Shown: piece by piece, positions 7,378 through 22,232 of the stretch
Layout: each line of letters begins with the position of its first letter
Position numbering within the stretch: position 1 is the stretch's first letter
Source of the DNA: Gemmatimonadota bacterium
GTDB lineage: Bacteria > Gemmatimonadota > Gemmatimonadetes > Gemmatimonadales > Gemmatimonadaceae
Direction of reading: 5' to 3'
DNA: 23,028 bases
Assembly: GCA_031372565.1 (NCBI GenBank)
Contig: JANMLN010000023.1
Location: 1 to 23,028, forward strand
The notes under the pieces: generated by a model
What the model was told of the DNA's origin: nothing
Seen by the model: the letters and a program-made list of their open reading frames with translations, nothing else
Database searches by the model: none
Made by a program: the position numbers and the translations under genes

Positions 7378-8342
7378 GTGGCGAACAGTTCGCGGATCTC
7401 GTGGACCTCGAGTCCGAAGCCGAGCGCGAGCATCAGGTCGATGCGCGCCTGTTGGGCGCGTCGCGAGCCGGCGAAGATGCAGCCCATCTCGGCCAACCGC
7501 TTGCCGCCACCGGGATAGCCGTAGGTGATGCCCACGCGCCCACGCAGCGCGCGCGACGCAATGACGACCGGCTTGCCGTCGTCGATCACGCGCTGGATGC
7601 CGGGGACCATGGCGGGGGGCACGTTGCCGCGCCCCATGGCCGCGATCACGATGCCACGCGCGTCACGGCGGGATGCATCGATGAGTCGGCTGTCCGAGCC
7701 CGCCCAGACGCCGATGATGTCGACCGGCGTGGCGGGTTCGGCGGGCGCGAGCAGCGGCGGCGCTCCCGGCAGTGCTCGGCGGAAGATCACCATCCCGTCA
7801 TCGACGACGCCAACCGGACCGAGCCCCGGGCTCTCGAACGCGTCGAGCAGGTGGGTATGCGCCTTGGTCACGTCGAGTGCGGAATAGACGCGCGACCCCA
7901 TCACCACCATCGTGCCGTATCCGAATGCTTCGGGGCTCGCGGCCACGCGGACGGCATCGATCAGGTTGGCTGGCCCGTCCCACCCGAGGTCGCTCGCGTT
8001 GCGCATGGCACCGGTGAACACAACGGGTTTGTCGCTTCCGATCGAGCGCGCGACGAGATACGCGGTCTCTTCGAGCGAGTCGGTGCCGTGCGCGACCACC
8101 ACGCCATCGATCTCGGGCCGCGCGAGGCGCACCGCGATCGCTTCACGGAGGGCCCATTGCCGCTCGACCGTCATGTGCGGCCCGGGAAACGCTCCCCACT
8201 GCTCCGGTTCGAGCGGCGCGATGTCGTGAATGCCGGGTGCTGCGGCCAGAATCTCGGCAGCCGACAATGCTGGCACCGCACCCCCGGCTCGGGGGTCGAA
8301 CTTCATCGAAATGGTGCCGCCGGTAAACAGGATGGCGATCAT
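7374..8342 (-). CDS. L-asparaginase (cytoplasmic, no signal peptide)
   Basis: LFTGGTISM, HGTDSLEET, KPVVFTGAMR, WDGPANL, K.HT..AFESP. ATG at 8342 overlaps the SDR stop (ATGA). Confidence 0.92.
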   Translation of the reverse strand: MIAILFTGGTISMKFDPRAGGAVPALSAAEILAAAPGIHDIAPLEPEQWGAFPGPHMTVERQWALREAIAVRLARPEIDGVVVAHGTDSLEETAYLVARSIGSDKPVVFTGAMRNASDLGWDGPANLIDAVRVAASPEAFGYGTMVVMGSRVYSALDVTKAHTHLLDAFESPGLGPVGVVDDGMVIFRRALPGAPPLLAPAEPATPVDIIGVWAGSDSRLIDASRRDARGIVIAAMGRGNVPPAMVPGIQRVIDDGKPVVIASRALRGRVGITYGYPGGGKRLAEMGCIFAGSRRAQQARIDLMLALGFGLEVHEIRELFAT

Positions 8343-9094
8343 CCGCAGAGCACGCTGCCACCATTGACGTTCAGGATCTCGCCCGTGACATGTCGCGCAT
8401 ACGGCGTGGCGAGAAAGAGAATCGGCCCGGCGATATCGGCAGGTGACGCGACACGTCCGATCGGAATCGTCCTGGCGATGCGCTCGCGCCCACCGTTCGC
8501 GAAGGCGTCGGCGCACATCTCGGTGTCGACCCATCCCGGCGCCACGGCATTCACCGTGATGTCGCGCGGCGCGAGTTCGACCGCCAGCGACTTCACGAAC
8601 GAGATCATGGCGCCCTTGCTCGCTGCGTAATCCGAGTGGAACGCTTCCCCGCGCTGTCCCGCCGTGCTCGCCACGTGAATCAGGCGCCCGCCCGGGGACA
8701 GCACACGCGCCGCAGCGCGCGAGATGAAGAACATCGCATCGGTGTTGGCGCGCATCGTCTCGCGCCAGCGTTCGTTGGTGAGCACATCGACGCCATCGTC
8801 GGCGGTTGGCCAGATGCCGGCGTTGTGCACGAGGATGTCGAGCCCACCGAGGGCGGCCACGGTATCGGCCACCAGCGCATCGGCACCCGCGCTCATGCCG
8901 ATGTCGTGGGCAAAGGCGTGCGCCGTGGCGCCTGCTGCGCGGAGCTCGGCAACGAGTGCATCAGCCTCCGACGCGCGGGACCGATACCCGATGGAGACGG
9001 CAGCGCCGGCCTCGGCGAGGAGCCGCGTGGTGGCGAGCCCGATCCCGCGCGAGCCTCCAGTGATCAGGGCCCGGCGGCCGGTCAGCGAGAACAT
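8339..9094 (-). CDS. Short-chain dehydrogenase/reductase (FabG-like)
   Basis: TGGSRGIG, HNAG, YAASK, VNAVAPGWVDT, TGEILNVNGG. Confidence 0.93.
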   Translation of the reverse strand: MFSLTGRRALITGGSRGIGLATTRLLAEAGAAVSIGYRSRASEADALVAELRAAGATAHAFAHDIGMSAGADALVADTVAALGGLDILVHNAGIWPTADDGVDVLTNERWRETMRANTDAMFFISRAAARVLSPGGRLIHVASTAGQRGEAFHSDYAASKGAMISFVKSLAVELAPRDITVNAVAPGWVDTEMCADAFANGGRERIARTIPIGRVASPADIAGPILFLATPYARHVTGEILNVNGGSVLCG

Positions 9095-12867: not shown

Positions 12868-14025
12868 ATGGCTACGCTCGCTCAGCCCGACGCCCGTCCT
12901 GAACGCTCGGGCACACCGCTCGTCGCACGCGACAGGCACCGTGCGCCCGGTGCCCCACTCGAAAGCTCGGCCGCCGATGCCAGCGTACGCCGCTGGCTCG
13001 TGGCCACCGCGTGGAGCGTGGTCGCCGCCCTCGTGGTGGGGGGCATCACCCGGCTCACCGACTCGGGGCTCTCGATCACCGTGTGGGCGCCTGTGGCCGG
13101 TATCCTGCCGCCGCTCTCCCACGCCGACTGGGAGCGCGCTTTTCAGGCCTACCTCCAGATCCCCGAGGCGCAGACGGTCCACCGCGGCATCAGCATGGGC
13201 GGCTTTCAGGCGCTCTTCTGGTGGGAGTGGTTTCACCGCCTGGTCGCGCGCGGCGTGGGGCTGGTCATCGCCCTGCCCTACCTCTGGCTCGTGGCGCGGG
13301 GACAGCTGCGCGGGCGGTCGATGGTCGCGCTGGGCGCCCTGCCCGTGCTCGTGGCCGCGCAGGGCGCGCTGGGGTGGTACATGGTCAAGAGTGGCCTGTC
13401 GGTGAAGACCGACGTGAGCCAGTACCGGCTGGTGGCGCACCTGCTCCTGGCGCTCGTGATCTTCGTGATCGCCGTGTGGGGCGCTACAACGCGTGGTCGC
13501 GCCAACCGTCCGGAGGCGATGCGAGCATCCGACCGCGCCACCCGTCCGCTCGCGCTCGGCGCGACCCTGCTTGCCGCGCTCGCCTTCCTGACCATCGCCT
13601 CGGGCGGGTTCGTCGCCGGCCTCGATGGCGGCAAGGTGTACAACGAGTTCCCCCTCATGGGCGGACAGCTCGTGCCGCGCGAGTACGCGCAGTTGGCCCC
13701 GCTCTGGCAGAACTGGTTCGACAACCCGGTGGCCGCGCAGTTCAATCACCGGACGCTCGCGTTCGTCACGTTGGCCGCCGCGTGGGCGCTCTATCTGCTC
13801 GGTCGGCGCGCACTGTCTGGCGTGCCCGCCATTGCGGTCCGGCGCGTGGCGCTCGTAACCGTGCTGCAGGTGGGGCTCGGGATCACCACGCTGCTCCTGT
13901 CCGTGCCGGTGGCAGTGGCGGCGCTGCACCAGTTGGGGGCGGTGGCGCTGCTGGCGGCGGCACTCGTGGCGGCCAACGAGGCGCACGCAGCCGCCCACAC
14001 GCCGCTCGCGATCCGCGACCGCTAG
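12868..14025 (+). CDS. ctaA: Heme A synthase (COX15/CtaA, type 2)
   Basis: GGITRLTDSGLSI, WEWFHR, QGALGWYMVKSGL, VSQYRL..HL, GGFVAGLD, QFNHR, ALHQ; multiple TM helices. Shares the CTAG stop with convergent recX. Confidence 0.94.
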   Translation: MATLAQPDARPERSGTPLVARDRHRAPGAPLESSAADASVRRWLVATAWSVVAALVVGGITRLTDSGLSITVWAPVAGILPPLSHADWERAFQAYLQIPEAQTVHRGISMGGFQALFWWEWFHRLVARGVGLVIALPYLWLVARGQLRGRSMVALGALPVLVAAQGALGWYMVKSGLSVKTDVSQYRLVAHLLLALVIFVIAVWGATTRGRANRPEAMRASDRATRPLALGATLLAALAFLTIASGGFVAGLDGGKVYNEFPLMGGQLVPREYAQLAPLWQNWFDNPVAAQFNHRTLAFVTLAAAWALYLLGRRALSGVPAIAVRRVALVTVLQVGLGITTLLLSVPVAVAALHQLGAVALLAAALVAANEAHAAAHTPLAIRDR

Positions 14026-16431: not shown

Positions 16432-17652
16432 ATGCACATCGTGCTCGCTCCCGTTGGCACGCGCGGCGACGTGGAACCCCTGCTGGCGCTCAGCGACACG
16501 CTCCGCTCACGCGGCCACACCTGTACACTCGCCGCCCCGCGCACCTTCGCGACGGTCGCGGAGCACGAGGGACTGCCCTTCGTGTCGCTTGGAGCAGGCT
16601 TCGACGAGTTCGCGCGCGGCATGCACGACGAGACCCGTGTGATCCTCGCCTTCCGGCACACGCTGCGTGATCAGTACGACGGGCTCATGCGCGCGGCGCA
16701 GGGAGCCGACGCGATTCTCGGCGCCATGCTGTGTTTGGCGGGGCCCTCCGTGGCGCGCGTCCACCGCATCCCATGGCTCTTCGCGGGATTCAGCCCGCAC
16801 TATCTGCGGTCGCGTCTGCAGGTGCCTGCCGGCGTGCCCGTTCGCGCCTTGCCCCCATGGGTGCTCGGCGCGCTGAATGTCGTGCAGGACCTCGCCGTCC
16901 CGATCGCCATGCGCCCCTGGATCGCCGAGGAACGGCGGCTGGGCTTTCCGCCACCCGACGGCGTCTGGCAGCACATGGCGCTCAATGGGGAGTTGCTGCT
17001 CGGCTACGACGAGGAGCTGCTGCCCAACCCTGCCGACGCGACGGGTCGCCTCAACCCGATCGGCGTACTACGTCGCAATGGCGCGTCCGCACCGCTCGAT
17101 GCGGAGCTCGCCCGTTTCCTCGAGGCGGGACCTCCGCCCGTGTACCTCGGCTTCGGATCCATGTCGCACAACGATCCGGGCGCGCTCATGTCCGTGCTGC
17201 TGGGCAGCGTGGCCCGTACCGGTGCGCGCGCCGTAATCAACGCCGGCTGGTCGGGGCTCGCGGCGGAACAGCTACCATCAAGTGTCATCGTTGTGCCGCA
17301 TGCGCCACACGACGCGCTCTTTCCGCAGTGCGCCGGAGCCGTGCACCACGGCGGCGCAGGCACGCTGCACGCCGCCGCGCTGGCCGGCGTACCCCAAGCG
17401 GTGGTGCATCACTGGGCGGATCAGATCCACCACGGCTGGCGCGTCGAGACGCTCGGCATCGGTCCCGGCCCCACGACGATTCGCGCGCTCAATGCCGAGT
17501 GGCTGGACGCGACCATTCGGCGATTCAGCTCCGATGCCGCCATGCGCGAACGCGCGGCGGCGCTGGGTCACCGCATGCGGTCCCGACTCGGTGGGGCGGA
17601 GCGGGCTGCCGATCTCGTCGAGCGGGTCGTACACGCGCATCGGCTGGCGTAG
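16432..17652 (+). CDS. GT1-family glycosyltransferase (Glyco_transf_28 N-term; sterol-glucosyltransferase/aglycone type)
   Basis: GTRGDVEP, FLEAGPPPVYLGFGSM, PHDALFP, VHHGGAGT, AGVPQ, ADQ. Confidence 0.92.
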   Translation: MHIVLAPVGTRGDVEPLLALSDTLRSRGHTCTLAAPRTFATVAEHEGLPFVSLGAGFDEFARGMHDETRVILAFRHTLRDQYDGLMRAAQGADAILGAMLCLAGPSVARVHRIPWLFAGFSPHYLRSRLQVPAGVPVRALPPWVLGALNVVQDLAVPIAMRPWIAEERRLGFPPPDGVWQHMALNGELLLGYDEELLPNPADATGRLNPIGVLRRNGASAPLDAELARFLEAGPPPVYLGFGSMSHNDPGALMSVLLGSVARTGARAVINAGWSGLAAEQLPSSVIVVPHAPHDALFPQCAGAVHHGGAGTLHAAALAGVPQAVVHHWADQIHHGWRVETLGIGPGPTTIRALNAEWLDATIRRFSSDAAMRERAAALGHRMRSRLGGAERAADLVERVVHAHRLA

Positions 17653-17683
17653 TCACGCCTGCCGCCAACCACGCGCGCGGCAG

Positions 17684-19222
17684 CTACTCCTTGACCGCGG
17701 CCGAATCGACGGTCACGTCAAACGGTGCCGTGCGCACCACACCACCCCGGCGGAACTGCACCCAGACCCGATAGTGCCCCGCCTTCGGAAAGGCGTACGG
17801 AAAGCTGAACGATCCGCTGAGCGCCTCGCCACGGGCCATCCCCGGCATGCCCGCGTGTGCCGCCATCCCCGAATCGGCCGACCGCATGCGCTTGGCCAGC
17901 GTGCCGCGCGCGGAGTCGGCGTCGGTACGTCCGGTGAGCGCGGCCTGCGCTGCCAAGGAGGTCGTCCCGATGGGGTGCAGGTGCACGAAGACGTCCATCG
18001 AGTCGCGCACCACGACCGCGTGCGCGGCCATGCCGAGGAACGGCTCCACCGTAGCGGGCGCCCCTGCCTTGTCGCGGAGCACGAAGGCAAGCGGCGCATC
18101 AACGCCGGCCACGATGGGCTGTTTGCCGCGCTCCCAGTTGAGCACACTGCCGTCGTCGAGCGTCGCCGTTTCACCGGTCGCGCCACCAACGAAGCTGGCG
18201 TCATCCGGGTCGCTCATCGGCGTCGTGCCGGGGGGCAGCGTCACGTCCATCTTGCCGACCATCGTCTCCGCATAGCCCGTCTCGCGGACAATGTCGGCGA
18301 AGACGCGGTAGCGGCCAGCCGGGACGCCGGGCAGGGCGCCGGTAAAGTGGAGCGAGTCGAGCATCCGCGGGTGCAGGTGCGCGAGCGCGCCCAGGTCGTC
18401 ACGCACCGCGAAGAGGTGCATCATCTTGCCGTGGTCGGGAATGAACGGCGCCCAGCGGCGCTCGTTCATCGTGGCGGTGTCCATGCTGAAGTCGAGCTGC
18501 CGAACACCGGCGCTGTCGCGCACGGCGACGATCGCCTCGACCGGCGTGTACAAGCCACGCGCGTATGCCTCGTTCTCCTTGTTCCACCAGAAACGGCCGA
18601 GCGTCAGGAGGGTGGTGACGATGACGGCCGCGATGCCGCGCGCAATCCACGAGCGCTTGCGCTGCGCCGTGTCGGGCTCGATACCGGGATCGAGCGTCGA
18701 TTCGCGCGACGCCGCCCCGACGATCGTGAGCAGCCCGACCACGAGGAAGACGCCGAAGGCGGCCAACCCGATTCCCATCTTGGGGTCCATGGTCAGCACC
18801 GTGGTCGCGGCCGCCACGAAGGGCACCACGGCCGTTCCCTTCCCGGCGGAGCCTTCAACGTTGACGCGGACCGAGTAGCTGCCCGACGACATGATCCAGA
18901 GCTGATCACTCCAGAGCGTGCTGTCGCCGACGACGCGCCGCAACTGGTCCGGTGGCGGTGCACTCTTCTCGCCGCCGTTCCAGATGTACGGCGCGGCCGA
19001 TACCGCCGTGACGCCACTCCCCTTCACCCGCACGACGACATCGGCGCGCGCCGGAATCACGGCGGGGGCACGGATGATGACGCGCACCGGGTATGGACCG
19101 GCATCGCCTTCGAAGTAGGTGTCGGGGCTCCCGACGTGTGCCGACGCGAGCAGCGCACCCGATGCGATCAGCGCCGCGAAGGCGACGCGCTGCCAGCCGC
19201 GAGCGAGGCTATCGCTTGACAC
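17684..19222 (-). CDS. Exported, membrane-anchored putative metal-binding protein (N-terminal His, two TM helices, duplicated H...HLHP domains)
   Basis: GTG at 19222 overlaps the upstream gene end. Signal peptide ..ALLASA|HVGSPD; two hydrophobic helices; motifs DHGKMMHLF..AHLHP..GRYRVFAD and LGMAAHAV..VHLHP..GHYRVWVQF. Confidence 0.85.
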   Translation of the reverse strand: MSSDSLARGWQRVAFAALIASGALLASAHVGSPDTYFEGDAGPYPVRVIIRAPAVIPARADVVVRVKGSGVTAVSAAPYIWNGGEKSAPPPDQLRRVVGDSTLWSDQLWIMSSGSYSVRVNVEGSAGKGTAVVPFVAAATTVLTMDPKMGIGLAAFGVFLVVGLLTIVGAASRESTLDPGIEPDTAQRKRSWIARGIAAVIVTTLLTLGRFWWNKENEAYARGLYTPVEAIVAVRDSAGVRQLDFSMDTATMNERRWAPFIPDHGKMMHLFAVRDDLGALAHLHPRMLDSLHFTGALPGVPAGRYRVFADIVRETGYAETMVGKMDVTLPPGTTPMSDPDDASFVGGATGETATLDDGSVLNWERGKQPIVAGVDAPLAFVLRDKAGAPATVEPFLGMAAHAVVVRDSMDVFVHLHPIGTTSLAAQAALTGRTDADSARGTLAKRMRSADSGMAAHAGMPGMARGEALSGSFSFPYAFPKAGHYRVWVQFRRGGVVRTAPFDVTVDSAAVKE

Positions 19223-20417
19223 GCGCCATCCAGCCGCCCCAGGCGAGTCCCAGCCGGCTCGAGAAGGTGGCGAGCACGGCGGCAATGAGCAGCCCCTGTG
19301 CAAAGATCACCGCATCGAAGCCGGGCTGGGCACCACGACGAGGAGCGCCGAGCCAGAACTGGTAGCTCCACGGCCCCATGCCTGCGGTGTACGGGAACTC
19401 GCCGCCGTTGAAGAAGCCGTTCCGTGCCGCCGGACTGAGCATGAAGATCGACCACGGATACTGTGCGGCCACATGGAGTGCGACGAATACGACGCCCAGC
19501 GCGGCAGCGACGAGCCAGCGGTTGCGGCCGCGCAGGCGCTGGATCACGAGATCCACGCCGAAGGCGGGCACGATCAGCCAGACCGGGAAGTACGGCGGCC
19601 ACATGAACGTGCGAGGGTTGTAGATGGGGGCGAGCATCGGCCGCGCCTCGATCGTGCGCAACACGATGCCCATGATCAGCCAGAGCCCCATGTACATGAG
19701 CGCCGCGCCGGTGGCGGGCCACCGCAACCTGCCCGCGGAGGCAAAGCCGACCAGCAAGACGGGAAAGACCGCCCCCCACACCTGGTAGTAGAGCGCTCGG
19801 TGCTGTTCGTTGGGCCACGAGTACTCGAGCGTGGCGCAGGCCAGAATGAAGCAGAGCACCCCGCCAGCCGCCGCGTACATCCAGGCATCGCGCAGCTCGT
19901 TCACCTTGCCGGCCGACCGATTCTGTGCGGACAAGGTCAGGGTCAGCGCGCCGATCATGATGCCCAGCATCCCCGAGAGCAGCACCATGTGCGGCGGGCT
20001 CACGATCTTGACGTCGAGACCGTAGGCCGCGTGCCACCAGTCGTCAAACGGCGCCGACAACAGCATGGCGAAGGTGCCCCAGATCGTGATCCACGCCCCG
20101 AGGGGTCCAAGGAAGCCCCAGAACTTGACGCTCGCCGCGCGATCCTCAGGCGTGCCCGCGAATGTGGTCCGCAGCACGACGAAGCCGCAGGCGAGCCCGG
20201 CGGTGACGCCGCTCGCGTACTCGACCAGATGCGGCGCCGACCAGAAGGTGTCGCGCCCGATCGTCATGTGCCACGAGATGTCCCAGAGCAGCCCCACCAC
20301 GATCCCCGCCGCGCTCGCCAGGATCGTGGCGATGAAGCCGGTGGCGGTTGCCACGTTCGCCTTCGCGCGCGTGGCGCCGACCGCGTAAGTCGCTTCACGT
20401 CCGAGTGTCGTGCTCAT
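19209..20417 (-). CDS. Polytopic membrane protein with two PmoC-like DxxWH...H motifs
   Basis: About 9-10 hydrophobic segments; WDISWHMTIGRDTFWSAPH and FDDWWHAAYGLDVKIVSPPH. AGAGGAG SD upstream; start is ATG 20417 (TTG 20426 is an alternative). Confidence 0.85.
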   Translation of the reverse strand: MSTTLGREATYAVGATRAKANVATATGFIATILASAAGIVVGLLWDISWHMTIGRDTFWSAPHLVEYASGVTAGLACGFVVLRTTFAGTPEDRAASVKFWGFLGPLGAWITIWGTFAMLLSAPFDDWWHAAYGLDVKIVSPPHMVLLSGMLGIMIGALTLTLSAQNRSAGKVNELRDAWMYAAAGGVLCFILACATLEYSWPNEQHRALYYQVWGAVFPVLLVGFASAGRLRWPATGAALMYMGLWLIMGIVLRTIEARPMLAPIYNPRTFMWPPYFPVWLIVPAFGVDLVIQRLRGRNRWLVAAALGVVFVALHVAAQYPWSIFMLSPAARNGFFNGGEFPYTAGMGPWSYQFWLGAPRRGAQPGFDAVIFAQGLLIAAVLATFSSRLGLAWGGWMARVKR

Positions 20418-20451
20418 GCGCAGCAATACTCCTCTGGGGGGCGCCCGGTTT

Positions 20452-20478
20452 CAACACCCGAATCATAATCAGGGTTGT
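20452..20478 (-). promoter_or_regulatory. Candidate -10 (TATGAT) inside an imperfect inverted repeat, upstream of the membrane-protein operon
   Basis: Minus strand CAACCCTGATTATGATTCGGGTGTTG, with TATGAT at 20467-20462 flanked by ACCC-N12-GGGT. Confidence 0.45.
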
Positions 20479-22232
20479 CAGTCCGCGGCCGCGACAGGCG
20501 CCCCCTTCCGCGCCACATAGTCGCCGATGACCAGCATGTCCATCCGCGTGCGCAGATAGCAGGCAATCGCCTCCGCCGGGGTGCAGACCACCGGCTCGTT
20601 CTCGTTGAAGCTGGTGTTGAGGACCACCGGGAGCCCGGTGCGCGCCTCGAACCGCCGGATCACCTCGTAGTAGTCCGGGGCAGCCTCGCGGGACACGGTC
20701 TGCAGCCGGCCCGTGCCATCCACGTGCGTGACGGCGGGCAACCGCTCGCGCCACGCCGGCCGCACCTTGTACACGTGCAGCATGAACGGCGACGGGTGCC
20801 CGCTCTCGAAGAGCTCCTCCTGACGCTCGGCCAGCACCGCCGGCGCGAACGGGCGGAACCACTCCCGGCGCTTGATCCGCGCGTTGAGAATCTCCTTCAT
20901 GTCGGTCCGCCCCGGGTGCGCGAGGATCGAGCGGGCGCCGAGCGCGCGGGGCCCCCACTCCATCCGCCCGTTGAACCAGCCGACCACGTCGCCCGCCGCG
21001 ATGGCGTCGGCCGTGGCATCGAGCCGCGCCTCGCGATCGACACGCTGCGCCACGACTCCGGCGTCGTCGAGCGCGCGTTGTATCTCCGCTTCGGTGAACG
21101 CAGGCCCGAGGTAGGCGTTCTCCAGCGTGTGGCGCGGCCCGTCCGCGAGAATCGACTGGCTCGTGTAGAGCGCGGCACCCAGCGCCAGGCCGTCGTCGCC
21201 GGAGGCAGGGTGCACCACGCTCCGGCGGAAGGGCGTCTCAACCTCGATCATCCCGTTGGCCACGCTGTTGAGCGCGCAGCCACCGGCCAGCACGAGGTCG
21301 GTGGTGCCGGGGACGTCGACGGCCAGCCGGCGGACGAGATGCAGATACGCGCGCTCGAAGGCGTGCTGCACCCCCCAGGCGATATCCATGTCGCGCTGCG
21401 TGATCTCGGCGGACGGATCACGCGGTTCGCCGAACCGCTCGCGCATCCGATCACCCCAGAGACGCGCCATGGTGGCGCGCCCGTTCGCGTCGATCGTGAA
21501 GGCCTCCGTGGTGCCGAACGGCAGGAGCCAACCCGGTGTGAGCGTGAAACCATCATCGGTCAACTGCACCAGTTGGTCCGCCCAGTCGCGCAATGCGTCC
21601 GTGCCGTACGGTGCCAGTCCCATCACCTTCCCTTCGTCGCCGTACTCGCCATACCCGATGAACTGGCACGCCATGGCGTACAGGATGCCGAGCGAATCGG
21701 GCAAGAAGGTGCGATGGGTGACGTCGATGCGACCGCCGGTGCAGCGCGCGCGCATGGCCGACACGAAGTCACCCGAGCCGTCGACGGACATGCCGGCGCA
21801 CGACTCGAATGGCGACGTGAAGTACGCCGAGGCGATATGGGCGAGATGATGTTCGACGTGAACGGCGCGGAAGGTGAGTGCGCTGGCCTCGGTCCCCATC
21901 TCGCGCGCGACGGTCTCGTGCAGGCTGCCCAGGGCGCGACGCGAGAGAAGCATCCGGCCGAAAGTGAGCAGCTGCCCGGGACGTTGCAGCGCGGCCGCGA
22001 TCTTTGCGCCGCGATTGGCCTTCGTGTCGCGGCCAATGGCCACGAATTCCACGTCGCCCATGGTGAGCCCCGCCATGCGCAGGCACTCGGCGATGGCCAG
22101 CCGCGGAAAGCCCGCCCAGTACTTCTGCCGGTTGAGCCGCTCCTCGGCAATGGCCGCGACCGGCCGCCCGTCGATGACGAGGGCGGCGGACGCACCGGGG
22201 TGGAGCGCGTTGATGCCGAGGATGACGGCCAC
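20478..22232 (-). CDS. Carbamoyltransferase, NodU/CmcH/TobZ family
   Basis: AAIAEERLNR.K, HVEHHLAH, VDGSGD, GKVMGLAPYG, AGGCALN, GRMEWGPRALGARSIL, KRREWFRPFAP, HVDGTGR.QTV, LNTSFN. Confidence 0.95.
   Translation of the reverse strand: MAVILGINALHPGASAALVIDGRPVAAIAEERLNRQKYWAGFPRLAIAECLRMAGLTMGDVEFVAIGRDTKANRGAKIAAALQRPGQLLTFGRMLLSRRALGSLHETVAREMGTEASALTFRAVHVEHHLAHIASAYFTSPFESCAGMSVDGSGDFVSAMRARCTGGRIDVTHRTFLPDSLGILYAMACQFIGYGEYGDEGKVMGLAPYGTDALRDWADQLVQLTDDGFTLTPGWLLPFGTTEAFTIDANGRATMARLWGDRMRERFGEPRDPSAEITQRDMDIAWGVQHAFERAYLHLVRRLAVDVPGTTDLVLAGGCALNSVANGMIEVETPFRRSVVHPASGDDGLALGAALYTSQSILADGPRHTLENAYLGPAFTEAEIQRALDDAGVVAQRVDREARLDATADAIAAGDVVGWFNGRMEWGPRALGARSILAHPGRTDMKEILNARIKRREWFRPFAPAVLAERQEELFESGHPSPFMLHVYKVRPAWRERLPAVTHVDGTGRLQTVSREAAPDYYEVIRRFEARTGLPVVLNTSFNENEPVVCTPAEAIACYLRTRMDMLVIGDYVARKGAPVAAAD

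Follow-up and report, generated by a model that had tools for sequence, protein, structure and literature searches.

The closest described systems to the locus reported here are the copper membrane monooxygenases (CuMMOs), such as particulate methane monooxygenase (pMMO) and ammonia monooxygenase (AMO). In the account of pMMO given in PMC12576850, the PmoC subunit carries a CuC site formed by Asp156, His160 and His173 and a CuD site formed by Asn227, His231 and His245 (i.e., Asn-x3-His-x13-His), the PmoA subunit has seven helices, and the PmoB subunit bears His33 and is built from a pair of cupredoxin-like barrels joined by two helices. An N-terminal His is typical of copper sites, as in PmoB, CopC, lytic polysaccharide monooxygenases and YcnI (PMC10952591, PMC7529816). 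A second system of relevance is Bacillus subtilis YcnJ, which combines an extracellular N-terminal-His CopC domain with a polytopic CopD domain with a copper-binding His and a YtkA domain, and which is described as serving both copper import and oxidase assembly (PMC13344008). Here we describe two overlapping genes, gene 1 and gene 2, from a stretch of 23,028 nucleotides (nt) of a Gemmatimonadota bacterium (positions 1 to 23,028 of contig JANMLN010000023.1, assembly GCA_031372565.1; this whole stretch is called the window below). The pair is probably a new, widespread and very distant relative of the membrane subunits of the CuMMOs. Its basic elements are:

19209..20417, minus strand: gene 1, a 402-aa polytopic membrane protein with about 10 helices; ATG at 20417
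17684..19222, minus strand: gene 2, a 512-aa precursor with a signal peptide, a beta-sandwich, two transmembrane (TM) helices and two repeated beta-sandwiches
19209..19222, minus strand: overlap of 14 nt, the end of gene 1 lying over the GTG start of gene 2

The relationship to the CuMMOs is most apparent in two Asp/His motifs of gene 1, each placed on a helical hairpin:

20229..20285, minus strand: motif 1, W45-H63 (WDISWHMTIGRDTFWSAPH), with Asp46-x3-His50-x12-His63 located where helices 1 and 2 reach the outer side
19989..20048, minus strand: motif 2, F124-H143 (FDDWWHAAYGLDVKIVSPPH), with Asp125-x3-His129-x13-His143 located where helices 3 and 4 reach the outer side

Conservation was assessed in an alignment of 53 diverse full-length gene 1 members, 28-49% identical to the window protein (alignment A1), and in a locus set made up of 76 gene 1 copies from related loci plus that of the window (77 in all). 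Motif 1 takes the form W45-D46-x-x-W49-H50...G54-R55-D56...H63 in A1, and motif 2 the form F124-D125-x-W127-W128-H129...G133-x-D135...P142-H143. The individual residues are kept in 53/53 (D46), 46/53 (H50), 53/53 (H63), 52/53 (D125), 47/53 (H129) and 47/53 (H143) of the members, and all six Asp/His positions are kept in 77/77 of the locus set.

When a profile of the whole gene 1 protein was searched against the PDB sequences (E<=10), it returned four matches, each of them to AmoC/PmoC and each at motif 1 (E 0.042-8.2). A profile restricted to hairpin 1 (residues 25-95, 73 sequences) returned 14 matches, again without exception to AmoC/PmoC, the best being AmoC 9leg_C at E 5.2e-5. In this alignment residues 156-178 of 1yew_C fall on profile positions 22-44, starting at D46, and the CuC ligands Asp156, His160 and His173 are aligned with D46, H50 and H63 with identical x3 and x12 spacing. 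The Pfam AmoC family (PF04896) is weakly matched by 14 of the 53 A1 members scanned singly (best E 0.0011), while no other family is found in more than 2/53; the gene 1 of the window itself stays below the AmoC gathering score, with no match to this family at E<=1. Taken at the level of sequence, motif 1 reflects a true and statistically significant local homology to the CuC site of PmoC. An earlier note, made from the letters of the window, had posited a PmoC-type metal motif with a second copy in gene 1. Both are borne out, as is the conservation of their Asp and His residues, and the PmoC motif that the note gave is the correct one, since PDB chains 7s4l_C and 6cxh_C show EQDGTWHQTIVRDTDFTPSH.

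Motif 2 has the spacing of the CuD site (x3 and x13) and is placed 79 residues past motif 1 (71 in PmoC), with Asp replacing the Asn. A profile of hairpin 2 found no PmoC in the PDB, its 6/6 matches being to ribosomal protein eS8 (E>=0.82). The two hairpins align with each other in register in hhalign (D/D, WH/WH, PH/PH; P 0.001, probability 21%), and the hairpin-1 profile also matches the second hairpin of four actinobacterial homologues described below (independent E-value 0.007-0.22, for a nominal database of one million), which gives modest support to their being in-register repeats. Further, motifs 1 and 2 vary together, as expected if both build one centre: of the seven A1 members without H50, five are also without both H129 and H143. 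These five divergent proteins (P0281, P0303, P0340, P0359 and P0388) have Asp or Glu in place of H50, and Gln, Thr, Ser or Glu in place of H129 and H143; such a concerted change of ligands may signal another metal or function.

The AlphaFold2 (AF2) model of gene 1 is confident (predicted local distance difference test, pLDDT, 92.7; predicted TM-score, pTM, 0.91) and displays helices at residues 7-52, 61-87, 106-132, 141-167, 171-195, 208-228, 234-253, 282-294, 300-326 and 369-397. Lys/Arg clusters are found at the N-terminus, in the loops 88-105, 167-176, 229-233 and 295-300, and at the C-terminus. By the positive-inside rule both termini would be cytoplasmic, which would put motif 1 on the periplasmic side of helix pair 1/2 and motif 2 on that of helix pair 3/4, in each case where the helices end. 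A further acidic residue, Asp289 (window positions 19551-19553; Asp in 51/53 and Glu in 2/53 of A1), lies within helix 282-294 and thereby in a region that the actinobacterial homologues do not have in common with gene 1.

In a Foldseek search of this model against the PDB, 10 chains of PmoA/AmoA occupied ranks 1-7, 10, 11 and 17 among the 49 matches listed with a probability of 0.96-1.0, though no match reached E<=0.001 (best E 0.0098). These chains, of 220-274 aa, superpose over 236-282 aligned columns with a target TM-score of 0.45-0.55 and a root-mean-square deviation (rmsd) of 6.5-14.8 Å. The other 39 listed matches have a probability of at most 0.38, and a search of a viral structure library, used as background, gave nothing above 0.41. 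The matched chains are chain B of the pMMO entries and chains A, B or D, of 273-274 aa, of the AMO entries. The former would be PmoA, as chains A and C of 7s4h are PmoB and PmoC (PMC12576850); the latter would be AmoA on account of their length and of the C chains being named AmoC. No PmoC/AmoC chain is present among the 49 listed matches. The part of gene 1 that probably superposes on PmoA/AmoA is the following core, which we take to be PmoA-like since it comprises seven helices, like PmoA, and is the only part common to the actinobacterial homologues:

19659..20417, minus strand: conserved seven-helix core (residues 1-253), common to the distant actinobacterial homologues

The remainder of the protein presents a different picture from that drawn in the earlier note, which had read gene 1 as a fusion of PmoC and PmoA and the locus as the C-A-B order in two polypeptides. 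A profile of residues 170-402 finds no PmoA in the PDB, its one marginal match being to CydA (E 0.047), and the Pfam AMO family (PF02461) is absent from the 25 families listed for the 53 A1 members. Moreover, 402 aa are too few for both subunits, PmoC is missing from the listed fold matches, and the loci lack a third conserved gene (see below). A PmoC/PmoA fusion and, in the strict sense, a C-A-B order are thus not upheld; a single seven-TM PmoA-like core carrying PmoC-type motifs fits better.

The combination of a subunit-C signal in the sequence with a subunit-A signal in the fold, together with the shortness of the homologous stretch (about 22-36 residues), raises the question of whether the likeness is a coincidence, made up of a short motif and a generic helix bundle, in a family unrelated to the CuMMOs. 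The lack of any CuMMO match for the second hairpin and the C-terminal part, and the weak Foldseek E-values (best 0.0098, none <=0.001), point the same way. Such a coincidence would nevertheless have to account for three independent searches that give only CuMMO subunits (4/4; 14/14; AmoC in 14/53 against competitors in at most 2), for ligands that align exactly and are also the most conserved residues, and for Foldseek probabilities of 0.96-1.0 for 10 chains from different organisms against at most 0.38 for the other listed matches and at most 0.41 in the control library. We therefore regard it as improbable.

Gene 2 encodes the periplasmic partner of this membrane protein. Its AF2 model is likewise confident (pLDDT 92.2, pTM 0.88), with a helix at residues 4-26, beta-strands at 35-137, helices at 147-174 and 185-222, and further beta-strands at 229-327 and 342-506. 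Combined with the conserved residues, this delineates the following parts:

19139..19222, minus strand: signal peptide, residues 1-28, ending in A-S-A, predicted from the sequence and helix 4-26
19136-19138, minus strand: codon of His29, the predicted mature N-terminus
18788..19138, minus strand: beta-sandwich of the N-terminal periplasmic part, residues 29-145, opening with HVGSPD and bearing invariant Y44, W109 and M111
18557..18784, minus strand: two TM helices (147-174 and 185-222) with a short Arg/Lys-rich, cytoplasmic loop between them
18218..18550, minus strand: periplasmic beta-sandwich repeat 1, residues 225-335, with invariant D263-H264-G265, H269, H282-x-H284-P and D310
17687..18217, minus strand: periplasmic beta-sandwich repeat 2, residues 336-512, with invariant M398, H401 and H414-x-H416-P and a filamin/Ig-like end (PGxYxxWVQ)

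The protein reads ...ALLASA followed by HVGSPD, and cleavage of the signal peptide is placed before His29 because of the A-x-A motif. A start with A-x-A followed by H-V/I-G-S-P-D/N is present in 63 of the 65 complete gene 2 open reading frames (ORFs) from the related loci, and His29 in 56 of the 57 rows of a curated gene 2 alignment (A3). As to the exceptions, one copy has Asp instead of the N-terminal His (L074:3808-5307) and another has its N-terminal domain out of frame with the rest (L052); in addition, one gene 2 is shortened to 333 aa (L044:6191-7189). These odd copies possibly represent decay or assembly errors. The two C-terminal repeats are homologous to each other (hhalign probability 88%, E 2.8e-6), and each has an invariant His-x12-His-x-His-Pro cluster (H269/H282/H284 and H401/H414/H416). 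The N-terminal domain has no invariant His beyond His29, and the H-x-H of the CuB site of PmoB is absent from it.

The earlier note had also compared gene 2 to PmoB. The resemblance holds for the topology and for the N-terminal His, but not for homology: profile searches of the PDB with the whole protein and with each domain retrieve no PmoB, Foldseek places no PmoB/AmoB among the 48 matches listed (these being generic tandem Ig/FnIII proteins with a TM-score of at most 0.30), and the Pfam family Monooxygenase_B is absent from the 25 families listed for the 57 gene 2 members. What emerged instead from the Pfam scan of these 57 were matches to YtkA-like domains in 9/57 (best E 1.6e-4) and to CopC in 2/57 (best E 0.029), all below the curated thresholds. 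A profile of the N-terminal domain weakly matches PDB chain 9ll2_A, named 'Copper resistance protein' (E 0.005), and one of the last domain matches a filamin-type Ig domain (E 0.05). In the ESM Atlas, the leads for gene 2 all score below 0.9, namely actinobacterial 'secreted protein' clusters (0.87) and a cluster with YtkA on 14% of its members (0.76), while gene 1 retrieves only unnamed clusters of its own family. Overall, the domains of gene 2 weakly lean to copper-binding sandwiches of the YtkA/FixH/CopC type.

Both genes belong to large families. Among 8000 scored candidates each, gene 1 has 6846 relatives at E<=1e-3 and gene 2 has 2034, and on account of these numbers both are real genes and not chance ORFs. 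In a library clustered at 50% identity, gene 1 has 1913 representatives, of which 194 are at E<=1e-30. Every named relative of either protein among the matches listed is a 'hypothetical protein', none with a precomputed Pfam domain. Searches of the window proteins against Pfam and NCBIfam assigned neither to a family, the lone line being a chance-level match to Phage_attach (E 0.56), and single-sequence searches of both against the PDB sequences gave no match. To survey related loci, one genome per species was scanned with a profile from a 12-sequence gene 1 alignment, which yielded at least 600 matching stretches and, among them, at least 596 species-level genomes with a confirmed gene 1 match. 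The best 80 of these loci were examined throughout this work; going by their record titles, they come from Gemmatimonadota (52), Acidobacteriota (24), Verrucomicrobiota (3) and Eisenbacteria (1).

In 78 of the 80 loci, gene 1 is followed immediately on its 3' side by a co-oriented gene 2 homologue. These are 78/78 of the testable loci, as in the two remaining ones (L002 and L075) the contig stops within gene 1 or where gene 1 ends. The pairing of gene 1 and gene 2 is strict and obligate, in agreement with the co-occurrence that the earlier note had put forward as a check. The pair has consecutive NCBI locus tags in four metagenome-assembled genomes (MAGs) and is complete in the cultured bacteroidete Chondrinema litorale WSW3-B12 (OQ292_RS32125/32130, both 'hypothetical'). 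A search for longer, fused forms returned three proteins, all of which proved to be gene-calling artefacts: P0392 and P0394 (715 and 806 aa) have a garbled junction retaining the signal peptide, and P0393 matches gene 1 only and then continues into unrelated sequence. The first two again reflect the adjacency of gene 1 and gene 2.

When all neighbouring ORFs with 90 aa or more were clustered for the 80 loci and the window (81 loci), no third conserved partner emerged once the pair and its antisense shadows were set aside. The most frequent other cluster is a Ser/Thr kinase with PD40 repeats (13/81), followed by minor neighbours such as a TlpA-like redoxin (8), CcdA/DsbD (5), SURF1 (4) and Cu/Zn superoxide dismutase (3), besides many unrelated enzymes. 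The redoxin and CcdA/DsbD lie upstream of the pair in a group of Gemmatimonadota loci, and the superoxide dismutase directly follows gene 2 in L043, L047 and L057 (e.g., L057:5520-6065, minus strand).

These data also bear on whether the pair might be a canonical particulate methane, ammonia or alkane monooxygenase that annotation had missed. It is the resemblances in motif and topology, and only these, that would speak for this. The window proteins have no match to AmoC, AMO or Monooxygenase_B of Pfam at E<=1; there are two genes, not three, with a single membrane subunit of 402 aa; homology to PmoB is lacking; and the fold E-value is never better than 0.0098. In terms of family membership, the pair is thereby excluded from being a canonical pMMO/AMO, and we attach hardly any weight to this explanation.

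A tblastn search against plasmids returned 7 records, of which the contexts of six were inspected, Streptomyces sp. FR1 (H4) being left out. Four of them, from Streptomyces mirabilis P16B-1 (SMIR_RS41270), Streptomyces sp. F2, M. chubuense and M. aubagnense, encode single proteins of 475-489 aa with 27-36% identity over part of the protein (WP_024126299.1, WP_212728630.1, WP_014805643.1 and WP_138230750.1, all annotated as 'hypothetical protein'):

L082:7902-9371, L083:7998-9431, L085:7959-9404 and L086:8007-9434: the actinobacterial homologues, single-protein forms

The A1 profile matches these proteins over positions 15-277 only, corresponding to helices 1-7, and both Asp/His motifs are retained; one of them scores 13.6 bits against Pfam AmoC (cut-off 26.7). 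Past the membrane core they have a conserved A-x-A-H-D-P-G-Q-G, a beta-rich domain and a final helix. The beta-rich domain gives weak matches to FixH (E 0.01) and YtkA (E 0.049) in one protein. They thus look like the membrane core fused to a head resembling gene 2, with the A-x-A before the His as a putative internal signal-peptidase site that would free an N-terminal His. As the profile of the N-terminal domain of gene 2 does not detect this C-terminal head, its likeness to gene 2 stays a lead, based on the A-x-A-H motif and the weak FixH/YtkA matches.

Copper or heavy-metal genes adjoin the homologue in four of the six plasmid contexts inspected, namely in all four actinobacterial, single-protein ones. 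On S. mirabilis plasmid pI these are genes for a cupredoxin, an HMA protein, a P-type ATPase passing the copper-translocating model TIGR01511, a DUF5134 protein with a Met-rich stretch and a CopY-family regulator; on pFRL4 of Streptomyces sp. F2, a multicopper oxidase, ResB/CcsB, a cupredoxin, DUF5134 and DUF305; on pMYCCH.01 of M. chubuense NBB4, an HMA protein, TlpA, CcdA and a CopY-family regulator; and in M. aubagnense, a YHS-domain protein and a CopY-family regulator with an M56 peptidase. The pair of Chondrinema litorale adjoins an RND efflux pump and CorA. The plasmid of Rubrobacter marinus (L084:8001-9022), which has no metal genes at this locus, shows an unannotated partial match to the hairpins of gene 1. 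The next 'hypothetical protein' (8309-9022) resembles the later helices of gene 1, the A-I-D-L segment included, and this locus looks like a split or frameshifted gene 1 homologue.

The copper context of these distant homologues also weighs against the use of some different metal, such as Fe, Zn or Mn, or of no metal at all. The pair could then be, for instance, a di-iron or zinc enzyme, a transporter or a sensor, and its likeness to PmoC would go back to one ancestral 2-His-1-carboxylate hairpin while the chemistry is not shared. An Asp/His/His triad takes up Fe(II) and Zn no less readily than Cu, and the first crystal structure of pMMO reportedly had zinc in the PmoC site. The conserved mid-membrane Asp289 (51/53 D, 2/53 E) would suit ion translocation, the subfamily in which His is replaced by Asp, Glu or Gln is of a piece with this, and all family-level similarities of gene 2 are sub-threshold. 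Against these, the N-terminal His, a hallmark of copper sites, is present in 56/57 sequences, and the leads for gene 2 are YtkA, CopC and a 'copper resistance protein'. We consider a non-copper or metal-free pair unlikely.

The two explanations to which we give most weight accept the copper and differ as to what is done with it. The first takes the pair to be an actual membrane oxygenase or oxidoreductase that depends on copper, a minimal cousin of pMMO/AMO that has two subunits, with CuC- and CuD-type sites in one polypeptide. It would oxidise some small hydrocarbon, lipid, quinol or inorganic compound, or even Cu(I), with gene 2 as a PmoB-like scaffold or a copper- and electron-delivering cap. 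The significant local homology is to the proposed active site of the CuMMOs, with all three CuC ligands kept; the second motif has the exact CuD spacing; the best fold matches are to PmoA/AmoA; gene 2 has a PmoB-like topology and an N-terminal His; the pairing is as strict as in subunits of one enzyme; and the fact that one subfamily exchanges its ligands in concert suggests that a catalytic centre has been tuned. Yet the loci have no conserved nearby gene for a substrate-specific downstream metabolism or an electron donor, separate A and C subunits and homology to PmoB are both lacking, and so is the CuB H-x-H in the N-terminal domain of gene 2. Further, at least 596 species-level genomes of heterotrophic soil phyla are unlike the specialised hosts of CuMMOs, and the distant homologues lie in copper-resistance islands instead of catabolic clusters. 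We hold such enzymatic chemistry to be possible, but not the likeliest outcome.

The second explanation, which we tentatively prefer while giving it somewhat less than even chances, is that the pair forms an obligate two-subunit complex of the cytoplasmic membrane, which holds a metal, most likely copper, at its periplasmic face and serves in copper handling. In this mechanism, gene 1 would offer two Asp and four His at the outer membrane boundary, enough to build one dinuclear site or a pair of adjacent mononuclear ones. Gene 2, anchored by its two helices, would set three beta-sandwich domains over the outer face of gene 1. Once cleaved, it would start with a free N-terminal His as a ligand of the histidine-brace type and would add two His-x12-His-x-His clusters; it might capture copper and then hand it to the Asp/His centre of gene 1, or cap that centre. 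The role would be membrane copper handling, that is, acquisition and delivery to cuproenzymes or else detoxification, possibly with a redox step, and we judge the oxidation of methane, ammonia or alkanes to be less likely. The identity of the metal, the contact between the subunits, the direction of copper flow and the physiological role are all what we infer for the pair. We slightly favour copper handling over oxygenase or oxidoreductase chemistry because of the copper islands around the distant homologues, the leaning of gene 2 to YtkA, CopC and a 'copper resistance protein', the fact that no catabolic genes accompany the pair, its broad distribution over heterotrophic soil phyla, and the precedent that YcnJ, together with YcnI and CtaK, sets for such an architecture in B. 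subtilis (PMC13344008). The copper-handling relative that the earlier note had mentioned as an alternative to an oxygenase is, if anything, the better-supported function.

Several points weigh against copper handling. Whether sequence or fold is compared, the pair has no characterised relatives other than catalytic subunits of monooxygenases, and what it conserves are the residues proposed to make up their active site, so that the logic of the nearest relative favours an enzyme. The copper context comes only from plasmids and from a distant actinobacterial branch with partial matches of 27-36% identity, whereas the 80 close loci have no consistent copper theme, their commonest neighbour being the Ser/Thr kinase with PD40 (13/81). 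Every domain similarity of gene 2 is below the curated thresholds. In addition, the hard-ligand set Asp/His/His typifies catalytic Cu(II), Fe(II) and Zn sites; Cu(I) transport paths use Met or Cys. A cuprous oxidase or cupric reductase activity would reconcile the copper-handling and the oxygenase readings.

As for the immediate setting of the pair in the window (G+C content about 69%; the nearest relatives of the locus among the matches listed are Gemmatimonadota MAGs), the two genes are, as the earlier note had described them, overlapping, co-oriented and uncharacterised, lying on the minus strand with a 14-nt overlap and without a Pfam or NCBIfam family. The overlap suggests translational coupling. 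The ORF of gene 1 spans 19209..20426 (minus strand), and its ATG at 20417 is preceded by GGAG, 11 nt upstream; that of gene 2 spans 17684..19303 (minus strand), and the GTG at 19222 gives a protein of 512 aa, the length of the database copy P0123. Of the Shine-Dalgarno sequence and the candidate promoter that had been proposed for the locus, the former is present and the latter finds no support, as a consensus scan of 17400-20700 detected 0 sigma-70-like promoters and 0 terminators. The gene upstream of the pair is:

20478-22232, minus strand: carbamoyltransferase of the NodU/CmcH type (Carbam_trans_N and Carbam_trans_C), ending 58 nt upstream of gene 1

Its strand and distance make co-transcription with gene 1 possible; in the related loci, it does not figure in any of the neighbour clusters that recur. 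Downstream of the pair lies a convergent GT28/EryCIII-like glycosyltransferase, with RecA, RecX, alanyl-tRNA synthetase and the heme A synthase CtaA further on. The last of these (COX15-CtaA, E 3e-92; 12868-14025, plus strand) is about 3.7 kb past the end of gene 2, and its proximity is of interest only because SURF1, TlpA or CcdA are near the pair in some related loci.

In the literature searched, with few subscription journals and no supplements covered, we found no description of the gene 1/gene 2 family, and one paper on 'CuMMO-like' genes deals with ordinary CuMMO operons. What the active site of pMMO/AMO (CuC/CuD, subunit C) is, what chemistry it performs and how the CuMMOs arose in evolution are long-standing questions. 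Here, a large unannotated family keeps the CuC/CuD-type ligand pattern twice in one small polypeptide, paired with a His1-bearing periplasmic partner, and its presence in at least one cultured strain makes it a directly testable system for comparison. It may reveal a new copper-handling or copper-redox machine of Gemmatimonadota, Acidobacteriota, Verrucomicrobiota, Bacteroidota and Actinomycetota, and both proteins, currently annotated as 'hypothetical', merit family models of their own. A more far-reaching proposal, which we put forward as speculative and on balance doubtful, is that the pair is the first recognised non-monooxygenase branch of the CuMMO superfamily. It would be either a minimal copper membrane enzyme of two subunits or the copper-handling ancestor of such an enzyme, with a single PmoA-like seven-helix core bearing CuC-type and CuD-type hairpins that arose by internal duplication, and a His1-bearing periplasmic cap above it. 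If this were true, PmoA and PmoC would descend from one such core, pMMO/AMO would trace back to a membrane complex for copper handling that is widespread among soil bacteria, and the pair would be a simple model, outside the methanotrophs, of the disputed pMMO active site.

Set against the known systems one by one, gene 1 resembles PmoC/AmoC (PF04896) in that the CuC hairpin aligns residue for residue with motif 1, including the surrounding pattern W-H-x-x-I-x-R-D-T-x-F/W-x-P-x-H, the second hairpin has the CuD spacing of x3 then x13, and, by its predicted topology, the motifs would be at the periplasmic membrane boundary. It differs in that the similarity is limited to about 22-36 residues without a Pfam match at threshold, and in that the second motif begins with Asp instead of Asn and has no profile alignment to PmoC. 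It also has 10 helices against 5-6, lies outside a CAB operon and finds no PmoC fold among the 49 listed matches. To PmoA/AmoA (PF02461) it is linked by the best structural matches of its model and by seven helices in about 250 residues in both; unlike them, it has no PmoA sequence signal, has three extra helices and bears the metal motifs that the CuMMOs carry on subunit C, and the fold match itself is distant (E>=0.0098, rmsd 6.5-14.8 Å). Gene 2 and PmoB/AmoB (PF04744) have in common a signal peptide, an N-terminal His, a beta-sandwich, two TM helices and more beta-sandwich, but neither a sequence match nor, among the 48 listed, a fold match connects them. Whereas the CuB site of PmoB is completed by His137/His139 (H-x-H), gene 2 has H-x-H (282/284 and 414/416) only after the TM helices, within two C-terminal repeats each with His-x12-His-x-His-Pro, and its domains look Ig/E-set-like (YtkA, filamin) and not like cupredoxins. 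At the level of gene order, the three genes C, A and B of the xmoCAB operon contrast with a two-gene module (78/78 testable loci) without a third conserved neighbour.

With YcnJ/CopCD, YcnI and CtaK (YtkA), the pair has in common an extracytoplasmic N-terminal-His domain, a polytopic membrane domain bearing His, which is essential in the B. subtilis system, and a YtkA-like sandwich, along with the weak YtkA/CopC matches in gene 2 members and the TlpA/CcdA, SURF1 or Cu/Zn superoxide dismutase neighbours at some loci. The difference lies in the membrane domain, which is PmoA/PmoC-like, with no CopD among the 25 families listed from Pfam for the 53 A1 members, and in the YtkA and CopC matches, which are sub-threshold, confined to a minority of members and lacking for the gene 2 of the window. 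Finally, the actinobacterial homologues, though each is one protein of 475-489 aa lodged in a copper or heavy-metal island, have helices 1-7 and both Asp/His motifs as in gene 1.

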